Assembly: GCA_012295275.1 (NCBI GenBank)
Contig: CM022676.1
Coordinates: 8,184,001-8,248,000 of the forward strand
Length of the DNA stretch: 64,000 nt
Direction: 5' to 3'
Source of the DNA: Chrysomallon squamiferum
Taxonomy: Eukaryota > Animalia > Mollusca
The position numbers and the translations under genes were made by a program. The notes under the pieces are model-generated. The model was not told the origin of the DNA. It made no database searches and worked only from the letters and a program-made list of their open reading frames with translations. Position 1 is the stretch's first letter, and every line of letters starts with the position of its first letter. Below are positions 6,506-56,496 of the stretch, in pieces.

Positions 6506-7979
6506 ATGCTTACAATTCGTGTGTTTATTTTAAATCAAGGGAGGTAAGTAGGTATGCAATATATCCCGTTCTAACAAGTGTCTTACATCAATGTGTATAT
6601 CAAATGCTTAGGTAGCTGCTTTAGCTTCTACAGGACGGTTCATGATGCATATAATTATTATGAGATCTCAAAAATAAACAAGTATTGCCCGTACGGAAGT
6701 CTTACCTCGCTCGCTTTTATCAAACCATTTCATAAATATGTAATAAAATTTGAAACATGAATATTAATGAGCAGCCTCCGCACGACACGCCCCTCTACAT
6801 TACCACGAACTAACGACATTTTCCCAGTCTGTCTAAAAGCGATCAAATCGTGCACCGCCCTCCCTCTCGGTTCCGCTCCTGATTTCGCGCGTTTCATTTT
6901 ATTATTAATAGGATACTTCTTTCAATGATTCTTCCACTGCCCTTTTTATGGTTAAATTACCTCGAGATACGACGTATGGACGGAATTACAGACGCAGTGA
7001 CAGCTTTATGTGGCGAAGGAGAACGAGAAGACATACAAAGTTGTTTAATAGACTTGTTAACACAACCAGGTGACTATTTATGTTTGTTTGTTTTTTTGTT
7101 TTTTGTTTTTTATACTAATAGTAATTATTATTATTATTATTGTTATTGTTGTAGTAGCAGTGGTAATAATAATAATAATAATAATAATAATAATAGTTTT
7201 GTTATGATTATGATTGTTTTTGATATTGTTATTACTGTTACTATTATTATTATTATTATTATTACTATTGTTGTTGTTGTTTTTATTGTTTTGTTATTAT
7301 TACTGTTTTTGTTATTATGGTTATATTGTTGTTGGTATTATGACTGATTATTATTGTTTTTGTCGTGGCTGTCATTATTATTATTATTATTATTATTATT
7401 GTTGTTGTTATTATTCGCCACTCCTTTTAAAAACAACATTATACTGATTTACCCCAACTTCCAGTGACAAGTGAACAACAAAATGCAGACCCGATCAAAA
7501 AACAGATTTCGGATCTGGAAAAAACCGTTTCAAAAATTGCTGATGTCCTCAACAACTTTGAGATTTACCTGGACGAACTAATGGACGAGAGAATCCTGTC
7601 GCCCTTCAACGAGAACCCAGAAACCGAGAGAGTCGAAAACCAGTTTAAAAAGGATGCGAAGGGAGATAACCAGATGGAACGCGAATGGGCGCAGTATGAA
7701 GAAACCACGACAGAAGTCGACCCTATCCACAAAAATGGCGAGCCGGAAATCTGGTCACGTGAGCATGACAAGAACATAGACACTGACCTCTTGAACTCTG
7801 AACGTAACAACTACGGGAACAACGACGATGGCAAAGAAACATTTAATATCGAGATTGATGAGGACGACGCTGATGAAGGAACGGTCGTTGTTGTCAGCCC
7901 GTCAGCTATACTGAACGCGCTGCTGCAGCTACAACATAATTTGACCAATTGGACGTCCGAATTAGAAGAAGACAGATGA
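6506..7979 (+). CDS. Coiled-coil receptor family member A: putative secreted/truncated form (leader, two-Cys module, acidic helical region, no TM), ~236 aa
   Basis: Exons 6506-6543 (AG|gtaagt, phase 2), 6912-7069 (phase 1) and 7465-7979. YLEIRRMDGITDAVTALCGEGEREDIQSCLIDLL is clearly paralogous to YLTIREMDGITDAVTDLCVQGKREYIRECLRDLL at 53830-53939. The C-terminal HNLTNWTSELEE resembles TNTTNWISKFEQ in that paralogue. Confidence 0.65.
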
Positions 7980-9419
7980 AACGGAACTTGAAGGAGTGGA
8001 ATTGACATCTTGTTACAACTGATATACCTGTCTGAGAGAGAGAGAGAGAGAGAGAGAGAGAGAGAGAGAGAGAGAGAGAGAGAGAGAGAGAGAGAGAGAG
8101 AGAGAGAGAGAGAGAGAGAGAGAGAGAGAGAGAGAGAGAGAGCACACAAAAAATATCCATCCATCCCTCTCTTTCTTTGTACGTATAATAGAAGGTAAAC
8201 ATTGTGTATGTATATGTGTATGAAAAGAGAGAGAGAGAGAGAGAGACATATGTATAGATAAAGGAATAAATAAACAAACTAAAATAATTATATCTATATA
8301 ATTTTATTAGTATTTTTCTTATTACACTAACAAAATACAGTTTGCTGATTTGAATTATTTAAAATATTGAAACAAAAATTATAATAAAATAAAAACTACA
8401 GAACAGTATGGCAGACAGCAAAACAAAGCGGGGAAGAAAGCAGCCTAGTTGTTAGTAAACTTATGTATTTATAAAACTGAGGATATATAAAACAAATGCA
8501 TAAACTACTCACACCATTATAAACAAATGAATTACAATTTCACAAATGTCCTAAAGTTCACAGTTTTGCATATAACTAACAGACAGACATTATATCAGAA
8601 ATCAGAAGAAATATTATGTCTTAAAGACAAAGACATTTGATAAGATAAAGAATAAAATTACACATACATGCATGTATATGTATCATTAATTTATTATCTA
8701 TTCTAATTAAACACGCAAATCTAAGCACATATCTATAGCTATTTTCACACACACAGACACACATTAATAAAACAAATTAAAAATTAAATTTAAGTATATA
8801 AATCCACCTGTGAAATGGTGTGTACTATAAGCTCATGTAATAGGTTTTCTCCCTTGAATTGCAGGACATCTTTGTGTTGAGGCCTTTCTTCTTATTATTA
8901 TTCTTTAGATTTTATTTATTTATTTACTATTTCCACACCCCCATATACACTGTTCAGGCCTTTCTTATTTCTTATTATTATTATTCTTTTAGTTTTATTT
9001 ATTTATTTACTATTTACTATTAAGTAAATATATAAATAACGATTAGTAGTCACAAATACATGTTTAAAAAAGAATTAGACACTTGGAAAAGGCTTAGAAC
9101 AAATAAGAGAAAGAATAAAATGAAGCAGAATGAATGAGAGAGAGAGAGAGAGAGAGAGAGAGAGAGAGAGAGAGAGAGAGAGAGAGAGAGAAAAGCTGTG
9201 GTATGAAATTTAATGAGAATAATGTGGGTAAGAGAGAGGAAAGAAGGAAACTTGTAGGTAAGACAGGGAAGGGAGATAACTCCTTATTAACATATTCAGT
9301 CACTGAATCACAGTGGAAATGTGACTGAAAGTCCTAAAGGATGCTGAAAGTGAAACTGGAAGAGAAGGTGAATGTCAAAGAGGGAATTCCATCAAAAGTC
9401 ATGATTGAATTTTCAGTGT

Positions 9420-53323: not shown

Positions 53324-53533
53324 ACATATCAATTCGCGATAAAGGTTAACTGTGTCACTAGTAGGTAAGGTTTGAAACATTTAGTTAGTTCAAATGACTT
53401 GATGTTAAATCTAGAGTCTTGATTATTTATTTTATAATATAGCGTTTATATATATATATATATAAACAGATATCACTAAACAGTCTAACAAGCAGCCGAA
53501 ACCGACGAAGATTTTCAACTAAAGGGAAGCACT

Positions 53534-56496
53534 ATGAAGAAGGAAGAGTTACAGTTCAAGGGAGAAAACTCATACAGGAAGATAAAGTACAGTGTATTTT
53601 ACACGCTGTGAGTAACACAATTGTTGCGAAAAAGTATTAAAACCTGAACACACACACACACACACACACACACACACACACACACACACACACACACACA
53701 CACACACACACATACACACACACACACAACCATGCTACATGTTAGATTCCGCTCGTGATATTGTTTTCACTTGACTATTTGCAGGATAGTTTTTTCAATG
53801 ATACGTGATTGTTCCGTTGTGGCACAAGATTACTTGACAATACGAGAGATGGACGGAATTACAGACGCAGTGACAGATTTATGTGTCCAAGGAAAACGAG
53901 AATACATTCGAGAATGTTTAAGAGACTTGTTGAAACAAGGTAACTTTTTCTATCTATCTATCTATATATGTATTCCATCTAATTCGTTTTATTTGTATAT
54001 ATTTATATAGACGTATTTATTTACTTAAACTTAATTTTTATTTCTTGTTATTTAAATGTGTCTGTATGGTACTGCTTAAATGTTTATATATATATATATA
54101 TATATATAATATATGGAAAATAAAATAATAATAATAATGTTTTTTCTGTGATTTTATTACTATTATTATGTTTGTTGTTAATATTTCATTATTATTATTG
54201 TAATTCTTTATTTTTTATTTTTTTTCGTTGATAATTTTATATGATTCTTTTTGTTGTTTTGTTTTGGTTATTATTTTTAAATTATTATTTTTACTTTTTT
54301 TTTTTTTTTTTGCTTTTATTTTATTTTATTATTATTTTTTTTTTTTTTTTTTTTGTATCGATGTGGCTGCTGGTATTTTTATTAATATTATTATATAATT
54401 ATTTTTACTATTATTATAAAATAATTATTTATATTATTATACTTAATATTAATATTATTGCAATTGATAATATTGTTCTTACAATTATTATTACTATTTT
54501 TGTTACTTTCATTTTAATGATGTTAAACATTTTTCTTTTTTTATCTAGTATTTTAAAAAAAAATATTTATTACTATTATTGGTTTTTTCATGCAAAAGTT
54601 AAGAAGCATGAAATTGAAAGTAAAATGAAAAACACTGAAAATAAAATACACAATTTTGAAACTAAAACACAAGAAATTGAAAGTAAATTGGAAAACACTG
54701 AAAATAAATTGCAAGATTTTGAAGCTAAACCACAAAAATTGAAAGAAAAGTATCAAAATAAAATAAAAGATTTTCAAATGGAAACGCAAGAAATTGAAAG
54801 TAAAATGGAAAACACTCACAATAAATTAGAAGTTTTTGAAACTGAAACAAAAGAAATTGAAAGAAAAATGGAAAACCTTAAAAATAAAACAAAAGGTTTT
54901 GAAAATAAAACGAAAGAAATTGATAATAAAATGGAAAATTCTGAAAATTTATTGCAAGATTTTCAAAATAAAAGGAAAGAAATTGAAAGAAAAGTGGAAA
55001 ACACTTAAAATAAAATACAAGATTTTGAAAATAGAATTCAAGACACTGAAAATAAAATGTATGAGTTTGAAACCAAAAGGAAAGAAAATGAAGGAAATTT
55101 TTTGAAAACTGAAAGTGAAATGAAATAATTTGAAACTAAAATGAGTCATACCAGTTTCAAACTGGAAAGCCTTGAAACTACAACACACAAATTACATGCC
55201 TCTGTTACAGACCTAGTGAATAGCATGAACAGCATAATGGATAAGATTCAGTTTATCGAGACTAATACGACAAATTGGATTTCAAAGTTTGAACAGAACA
55301 CGTCTTCCTGGGTCGGAAGTCTCGAATTGCGAGCTCGTAGATTTGAGGACATCACTCAGCTGAACAAACATCAAATCAGTGCAAACTATGACTATCTCAA
55401 GTACCAAACTACTTACACATGTGAGTTGCTTAGCATTTTAAATTTTAATCAGAGAGAGAGAGAGAGAGAGAGAGAGAGAGAGATCTGATTTTGTTATATT
55501 TCATTTAGGTACATTTTTAGTTAATATCCTTTATTTCTCAACTTACCTTCATACACAGACACACACAAACAAAGTCAGATGCTCGCACTTACATTCACAC
55601 ACAAACACAGACAATTACATTCATGCACATATGCGTGCACATGCACATTCACACTTACATTCACAAACAAACACAGACACTCACACTTACACACACACAC
55701 ACATGCATTCCTACTTAAATTAACATTTTATTTATGTTTTGTTGGTAATTAATGAATGTATTTTAGTTTGGAGTTTGATCATCATTTTCGTTGTTCTGAT
55801 TGCTGTAACCTGGAAACTGCTGATGTCGTGGAAAAGATCACCTAGTAACAGTGTTCACCAAGGAAACACAGCTGATGTAATGAATAATCTGTTATTTAGA
55901 GCTTTCCATGCAAATGAAATACGGGTAATTTTCTTTATAACACACACACGCGCACATACAGACATATACAGATAAACATACACACTCGTATACATACACT
56001 TGTAAATACATACATATCCATTCTTACACACATACATGTATAATATACACATACACACACCCATACAGATATGCAAATACATACACACACATTCACATAC
56101 ATACTAAGATATACAAATACATCAATGAGTGATTGCATATATCTGTTTATATATATAATCAGAAATTTATATTAAATTTACCAGAACAGGGTGATGACAA
56201 CATTCTTAGCAAGGTTCACAGAGAGAAGCTTAATCGAGAAGTCTGCACAATCACTTTCCACGGTGAAATGTCTGAACAACACGTCAAGCAGACATCAGAG
56301 GTTCTTGTCAGTGATCCAGCAATAAAAACTGTTGATATGTTGTTGAACCGGTTTGAGGATATTCTGCAAGTACCTCGCTCTAAGGTCTACATAGTCTATG
56401 TAGATTACAACGAGAGGAATGTGATTCTTGAAGACCCAGCAAAGGGACCTGGGAACATGAGACTGACAAATGTTCAGGCGTTACGTAAAATGGGTG
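53534..56496 (+). pseudogene. Coiled-coil receptor family member C: leader - two-Cys module - 21-aa-repeat coiled coil - TM - alpha/beta domain; two in-frame stops and last exon missing
   Basis: Exons 53534-53607, 53785-53939, 54599-55420, 55767-55924 and 56190-56496, phases consistent. In-frame TAA at 55006-55008 and 55126-55128. Exon 56190-56496 differs from 41677-41983 at only 5 of ~102 aa. I found no equivalent of exon 43067-43269 downstream. Confidence 0.75.
54602..55140 (+). repeat. Coding ~63-bp (21-aa, three-heptad) tandem repeat
   Basis: KTQEIESKMENTENKIxDFET-type units repeated ~7-8 times. Confidence 0.8.

Follow-up and report, generated by a model that had tools for sequence, protein, structure and literature searches.

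A mollusc family of predicted two-pass membrane proteins and the probable conversion of its cytoplasmic exon in Chrysomallon squamiferum

Paired immune receptors, such as the SIRP, CEACAM and Siglec pairs, are kept alike by gene conversion, which homogenises their outer part and leaves their tails different. Toll-like and IL-1 receptors are single-pass type I proteins with a leucine-rich repeat (LRR) or immunoglobulin (Ig) ectodomain, and tetherin/BST-2 combines an N-terminal tail, a transmembrane (TM) segment, a glycosylated extracellular coiled coil and a second membrane anchor made of glycosylphosphatidylinositol (GPI). The locus described here lies in a 64-kb window of the mollusc Chrysomallon squamiferum (assembly GCA_012295275.1, contig CM022676.1, positions 8,184,001 to 8,248,000 of the forward strand; all coordinates below count from the first letter of this window). 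An earlier note, made from the letters alone, had distinguished here three members, A, B and C, of an unrecognised receptor family in which the outer parts vary while the cytoplasmic domain is conserved. A protein family of this build does exist in gastropods and bivalves, with 109 proteins and no Pfam match, and its membership and two-pass layout can be stated with high confidence. B is the sole intact copy in the window, and the cytoplasmic exon that it shares with C has, judging from the sequence, probably undergone recent gene conversion.

The GRC/PTC1 and PTC2 genes of Biomphalaria are presented, in the available passages of PMC7494358, as clustered polymorphic single-pass TM genes without homology outside gastropods and with paralogues less than 50% identical, and the accessible part of PMC13712769 cites gene conversion as a mechanism that generally creates variation in such gene clusters. 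As far as these passages go, the present family resembles them as a set of gastropod membrane genes that lie in clusters, diverge from one another, lack a catalogued domain and include TM-less relatives, and is set apart from them by description, being two-pass, having bivalve members and sharing a near-identical domain; no Biomphalaria name occurs among the family search matches and no direct comparison with the GRC/PTC genes was made. The literature covered (titles, abstract openings and a few passages, most subscription papers lying outside) contains no description of the family, and the available text of PMC10075465 and PMC8905726 holds nothing on it. This family of mollusc membrane proteins is therefore apparently undescribed.

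The intact gene B and its mollusc relatives

The window is animal DNA rich in AT and in microsatellites, interrupted by two 200-N gaps (18963-19162 and 36886-37085), and splice sites are canonical and phases confirmed for all modelled exons of A, B and C. Gene B comprises five exons on the forward strand. Exon 1 (39707-40209) encodes a low-complexity N-terminal tail, predicted to be cytoplasmic, and the start of TM1; it finishes at a phase-2 donor, and its end aligns to the Gigantopelta protein P0002. Exon 2 (40410-40771) holds the remainder of TM1 (hydropathy 1.41) and a helical loop of about 105 aa with four N-glycosylation sequons, predicted to be extracellular. TM2 and a cytoplasmic linker are found in exon 3 (41160-41335); run X3 shows the 3' end of this exon joined to the cytoplasmic exon. 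This cytoplasmic exon, exon 4 (41677-41983), encodes the first 102 aa of a conserved alpha/beta domain and includes, at 41917-41919, the codon of a near-invariant Glu (B residue 428). Exon 5 (43067-43269), which supplies the last 66 aa or so and the stop and has no second copy elsewhere within the window, follows the cytoplasmic exon in all three RNA runs.

The resulting open frame of 516 aa contains no stops and two hydrophobic segments, the first of them weak. Residues 2-512 align to Gigantopelta P0002 (40% identity, E 2e-115), an independent support for the gene model. The RNA runs contain 0.29-0.39 of the words from 39600-43400, close to the exonic share of that span (41%). No motif resembling an immunoreceptor tyrosine-based inhibition or activation motif (ITIM/ITAM) was found in B. 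The read data consist solely of contigs, from three RNA runs belonging to a single study and from a fourth run of unknown type; their depth is unfit for ranking expression and rare variants are lost from them. Comparison with these contigs covered positions 54590-56540 only, hence neither A, nor the partial copy B', nor exon 1 of B or of C.

Relatives were collected by a HMMER search with the cytoplasmic exon (76 matches) and by a domain-profile search (42 matches). The protein set numbers 110 including B, and the domain is present in 109 of them, P0062 being a false match, a repeat protein without the domain, that was excluded. All the named relatives (10/10, 10/10, 29/42 and 6/10 matches bearing a name, depending on the search) come from gastropods (Gigantopelta, Haliotis) or from bivalves, and their annotation is either uncharacterised or that of a coiled-coil look-alike. 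The closest to B comes from the vent snail Gigantopelta aegis, and several members carry neighbouring locus tags on one contig.

Full-length members (n=76) were defined by a whole domain at the C-terminus and a length of at least 300 aa. In contrast to Toll-like and IL-1 receptors, 67 of these 76 proteins possess two hydrophobic segments, and nine possess one; the loop between the segments, usually a coiled coil, measures 62-756 aa and is followed by the domain of about 170 aa. N-glycosylation sequons are enriched in the loop (observed/expected 1.76, against 0.95 in the N-tail and 0.72 after TM2), and basic residues prevail just after TM2 (151 K+R vs 63 D+E). On this basis, the predicted topology places the N-tail inside, the glycosylated loop between TM1 and TM2 outside, and the domain inside. 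This layout recalls that of tetherin/BST-2, but the second anchor is a TM helix with a globular domain instead of GPI, and no homology is claimed. Some members, P0024 (Mytilus edulis), P0050/P0053 (Mercenaria) and P0073 (Ruditapes), are arranged otherwise, with the domain in the middle of the protein, with Ig/fn3 arrays ahead of TM1 or with SH3 at the N-terminus. These could reflect fused gene models or genuine domain shuffling; the Ig/fn3 arrays occur in two Mercenaria models, possibly fused annotations.

Divergence and homogenisation between B and C

Gene C, on the same strand, begins with a short N-tail and the start of a hydrophobic segment (exon 1, 53534-53607, phase-2 donor). The earlier note had seen a leader in it; the hydrophobic start exists, but the topology of the family makes it a likely TM1 or signal anchor. 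A phase-2 intron lies inside this first hydrophobic segment in all three genes. Exon 2 (53785-53939) encodes a two-Cys module common to A, and its end is spliced to exon 3 in run X3. Exon 3 (54599-55420) carries the 21-aa coiled-coil repeats already reported, which are real and correspond to a 63-bp repeat, followed by an A-like helix and then by a weakly B-like membrane-proximal helix. It is joined by a GT..AG junction, in all three RNA runs, to exon 4 (55767-55924), which encodes TM2 and the linker. Exon 5 (56190-56496) is a copy of the cytoplasmic exon.

The contrast between the two halves of B and C that had first drawn attention is borne out. The N-terminal halves do not align; the TM exons have diverged (75% nucleotide and 54% amino acid identity); the cytoplasmic exons are identical at 302 of 307 nt, the five differences being all non-synonymous and yielding exactly five changes in 102 aa; and the flanking introns share about 89% identity over aligned bases. 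Divergence thus decreases step by step, from a proportion of synonymous differences (pS) of 0.87 in the proximal ectodomain to synonymous (dS) and non-synonymous (dN) distances of 0.37 and 0.32 in the TM2 exon and of 0 and 0.02 in the cytoplasmic exon. Identity reaches 99-100% at its peak, around 41700-42000, and drops to 82-93% in the introns; the most recent homogenised tract in B extends over 41645-42093 and is 96.7% identical to C 56158-56606. Slow evolution does not account for this near-identity, since the cytoplasmic exons of B and C are only 52-54% identical to that of the Gigantopelta orthologue. The absence of synonymous differences at 66.7 sites, against 10.3 at 35.3 sites in the adjacent TM exon (Fisher p 8.6e-6), points instead to a recent gene conversion, as the earlier note had envisaged. 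The five remaining changes are compatible with neutrality.

A domain tree with 40 rows (B, C and 38 named proteins, unnamed and partial rows being excluded) groups them mostly by lineage, B and C being 0.047 apart and both 0.85 from Gigantopelta. In the per-exon trees (8 taxa), the cytoplasmic exon favours (B,C) and the alternatives are rejected by the approximately unbiased (AU) test (p 0.003), but no significant incongruence appears: the tree of the ectodomain end prefers (B,Gigantopelta) and rejects nothing, and the TM-exon tree rejects nothing. In same-species pairs of Mercenaria and Mya, identity is 95% in the domain and 62% and 57% just upstream.

The earlier note had also proposed that C arose by joining an A-type 5' end to a B-type 3' end. 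A single join of this kind would agree with the near-equality of the A/C exon 2 and B/C TM exon distances (dS 0.38 and 0.37) and with the fact that the likeness to A in exon 3 ends about where the likeness to B starts. It is nevertheless improbable: C has the normal two-TM layout of the family, A reads as a truncated C-type gene, and the B-like part of C displays three ages (pS 0.87, dS 0.37 and 0), which speak for nested conversions; at least one later conversion would be needed in any case. Repeated conversions, an old one over the TM2 exon and a very recent one over the cytoplasmic exon, would standardise the tail, and could keep the domains of different paralogues compatible. As in the paired immune receptors, one exon block is homogenised between neighbouring paralogues, but here it is the tail instead of the outer part.

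An assembly artefact, in which the B exon was collapsed into C, and/or a mis-join in an AAT-rich intron removed the last exon of C together with the first exon of the neighbouring gene TEN1, is improbable as well. The two N gaps are indeed bounded by 96-99% identical duplicates, the first exon of TEN1 was not found, and the C letters at 56262, 56368 and 56470, three of the five sites of difference, occur in no run. However, independent runs contain both stop alleles of C as well as its letters at 56198 and 56203. Moreover, C-type TM sequence meets B-type cytoplasmic sequence within a single 31-letter span of one contig; in X1, a C-type TM exon with nine differences from the window precedes the B-type start of the cytoplasmic exon. 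An artefact could account for the missing last exon, not for the homogenisation.

Truncated copies and possible turnover of the locus

The earlier note had overlooked two defects of C. As assembled, C is unable to make the receptor: exon 3 contains in-frame TAA codons at 55006 and 55126 and the last exon, encoding 66 aa of the domain, is absent downstream. These two defects leave B as the only intact copy. The likeness of the C intron to B stops near 56930. The stop letters of the window recur in other runs (55126 in X1, X2 and X5; 55006 in X5), and the contigs lacking the 55126 stop (X1, X3) carry a 1-nt deletion at 55098 after which the frame closes at once. Both kinds of C allele stop within about 100 nt of each other through different lesions; an intact C repeat region is found in no contig, although only the end of exon 3 is common to the other paralogues. 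The Haliotis protein P0011 hints, only at E 0.008, at an intact C-type orthologue, which would have the two-Cys module, coiled coil, TM2 and domain. No A- or C-type orthologue was found; word-based searches with the cytoplasmic exon alone and with the two-Cys exon gave no match, which is weak evidence.

Downstream of C lies a coding exon of TEN1, of the CST complex (57375-57641, forward strand; PF15490, E 1.7e-27, Pfam positions 30-117). It is out of frame with the last donor of C, and a splice from C exon 1 would be in frame. A donor scan, a motif scan and a Pfam search of 15 out of 25 candidate frames did not reveal its first exon upstream; the remaining ten frames correspond to exons and introns of C itself and to the TEN1 exon. 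One deletion or mis-join near 56930-56990 could have cost both TEN1 its first exon and C its last.

Gene A (forward strand) shares with C its second exon (6912-7069; hydrophobic segment and two-Cys module, 57% amino acid identity, E 1.6e-13), as previously claimed; the sharing of the first exon is less secure, two in-frame phase-2 candidates being available, the one chosen earlier (6506-6543) and another (6031-6095) with a slightly better match to C exon 1. Exon 3 (7465-7979) encodes an acidic region, then a C-like helix and a stop, and neither a TM2 nor a domain exon was found downstream. A had been said to stop before any TM; it ends indeed before TM2, at the very point where the B-like membrane-proximal helix of C starts, but its hydrophobic segment sits where the first TM of the family sits, and A may be either membrane-anchored or the soluble form that the earlier note proposed. 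The weak helix said to link all three genes stands for A/C in a shuffle test (score reached by 1/2000 shuffles), is weak on its own for B/C (32/2000; E 4.6e-9 when taken together with the TM exon) and fails for A/B (494/2000). To judge by its exons, A is a C-type gene cut before TM2. A fourth copy, B' (18145-18962, forward strand), absent from the earlier note, is a partial B duplicate that runs into the N gap; its exon 1 is 96% identical to that of B, with a 1-nt deletion near the start that shifts the frame, and the exon-2 acceptor is lost.

This accumulation of lesions raises the question of a purely neutral turnover in a tandem array. C, A and B' would then be pseudogenes, and ectopic recombination would have left the near-identical exon as a by-product without any role in sensor swapping. 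Besides the two stops and missing last exon of C, the deletion at 55098 in the stop-free C-like copies, the frameshift in B' and the compatibility of the five B/C changes with neutrality, this explanation can call upon an X2 contig in which C exon 2 passes directly into the cytoplasmic exon without keeping the frame, and upon the many recent duplications that fill the window. It is rather unlikely all the same, in view of the correct splicing of C-type exons in all three RNA runs, of the several TM-exon variants (at least three among the RNA contigs), of the C-type TM exon running into a B-type tail, and of the recurrence in other molluscs of a conserved domain beside a divergent loop.

The inner domain, its possible role and its surroundings

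The domain was modelled with a predicted local distance difference test (pLDDT) score of 96.7. DSSP assigns strands to residues 15-22, 50-54, 67-75, 107-113 and 149-151, with helices between; the five parallel strands alternating with helices are flavodoxin-like, their order being taken from alignments to TIR chains only. A TIR lineage is slightly favoured. G-domains came level with TIR in both VIA structural searches, and identity reaches 13-14% with TIR chains against 6% with the structural matches Bms1 and IRGQ. The TIR proteins concerned (RRS1 TIR 4c6t/4c6s, IL-1RAcPb 7fcc, SARM1, the bacterial TIR-STING 7un8 and the 'cryptic TIR' 5for) differ from the family, which matches no TIR hidden Markov model (HMM) and has two TM segments and a coiled-coil loop in place of LRR or Ig. 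The catalytic Glu of TIR NAD hydrolases (NADases) lies in the third helix, whereas the family's Glu, present in 108 of 109 domains, lies, in the model, in the loop before that helix, the conserved residue of the helix itself being a Thr. Adjoining this Glu, B and C share an Asn (B residue 436, region 41941-41943, and its equivalent in C) that departs from the family consensus, an Asp in 95 of 108 domains.

The tie in the structural searches would equally suit a degenerate G-domain, a pseudo-GTPase adaptor like the IRGQ N-terminal domain (8q6q) or CENP-M (4wau/4p0t), borne by golgin- or tetherin-like tethers rather than receptors. Some loops reach 756 aa and are long coiled coils with an anchor at either end; among Atlas clusters, the one nearest in features, from chordates, bears the automatic name golgin-like (0.90); and P-loop GTPase-like genes flank A and B. 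This alternative is unlikely, as neither the Walker A (G1) motif GxxxxGK[ST] nor the G4 motif [NT]KxD occurs in any of the 109 domains, the model has five strands, identity is higher to TIR, and the sequon enrichment puts the coiled coil of these membrane-anchored proteins outside the cytosol. Other resources were of little help: a PDB sequence search gave no match at E<=10 with the domain profile and only coiled coils with the full-length profile; Pfam, NCBIfam and PADLOC returned scattered single-member matches on 25 domain rows; nothing in a viral fold library matched at E<=0.001; Atlas matches to DUF4630 clusters (0.78-0.84) were below the bar and were not used; and a single-sequence model of P0003 (pLDDT 41) was unusable.

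Taken as a whole, the proposed reading sees in B an intact, and in C, A and B' broken or truncated, copies of a two-pass receptor family with a TIR-like inner domain standardised by conversion; the chances for and against it appear evenly balanced. Several points tell against it. The TIR, TIR_2, TIR-like and SEFIR profiles match none of 76 proteins at E<=0.001 and none of 25 domain rows at E<=1, the per-exon trees give no significant incongruence, and the truncated copies, which could serve as decoys, are explained equally well by neutral decay. The conversion tract is well supported, the TIR-like nature of the inner domain is predicted, and the local set is one working gene, of putative function, with broken copies. 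It is plausible, if somewhat doubtful, that the family proteins are signalling receptors, with an immune role that can only be presumed. If so, they would work like a TIR receptor; the layout is not that of Toll-like and IL-1 receptors, and no TIR profile matches.

Under the proposed reading, the outer coiled coil, fixed at both ends, would oligomerise or bind a surface ligand, and the inner domains would thereby be clustered into a signalling scaffold, as in TIR domains. The C of the assembly would be a copy in decay that is still transcribed, and A would derive from a C-type gene by loss of TM2. A bolder and unlikely proposal makes of the family a new TIR-fold branch of two-pass 'staple' receptors, in which conversion would give one standard domain, possibly enzymatic in view of the invariant Glu, to many coiled-coil sensors, the TM2-less copies (A and both C alleles) acting as anchored or shed decoys; relatives of such receptors may possibly exist in chordates, echinoderms and cnidarians. 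Pfam TIR models serve to count the immune repertoires of molluscs; a multi-copy, lineage-expanded membrane family whose TIR-like fold escapes them would, if real, leave a gap in the counts for oysters, mussels, scallops, clams and abalone. Conversion in this reverse pattern, with the tail homogenised and the outer part free, would offer a testable route to diversify sensors without breaking signalling. Even if the homogenisation is neutral, the unnamed domain and the two-pass layout merit a family definition.

The flanking P-loop GTPase-like genes are multi-exon genes with a C-terminal hydrophobic segment, located at 44671-47006 (forward strand) after B and at 13922-9423 (reverse strand) facing A; they give weak IIGP/AIG1 matches and are presumably IFI44-like. 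The reverse strand at 19428-36885 carries two BTB-BACK-PHR genes and a third partial repeat, which are 94-100% identical in non-coding sequence and only 91% in the large coding exon, a divergence that may reflect diversifying selection. These GTPase-like and duplicated neighbours fit a fast-turning immune-type region and prove nothing. A segmental duplicate (15604-18962 and 37204-40460, 97-99% identical) adjoins the N gaps and may represent either a duplication of recent date or a haplotype left uncollapsed. An apparent multi-exon membrane-protein gene without Pfam match occupies about 49000-51800 on the reverse strand; one of its exons, around 50760-51130, contains Cys and Trp, and another, near 50020-50180, is hydrophobic. 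Finally, exons at 2090-3543 (forward strand) match PAN (E 1e-5) and the EB module (E 1e-4) and belong to a secreted or surface protein.

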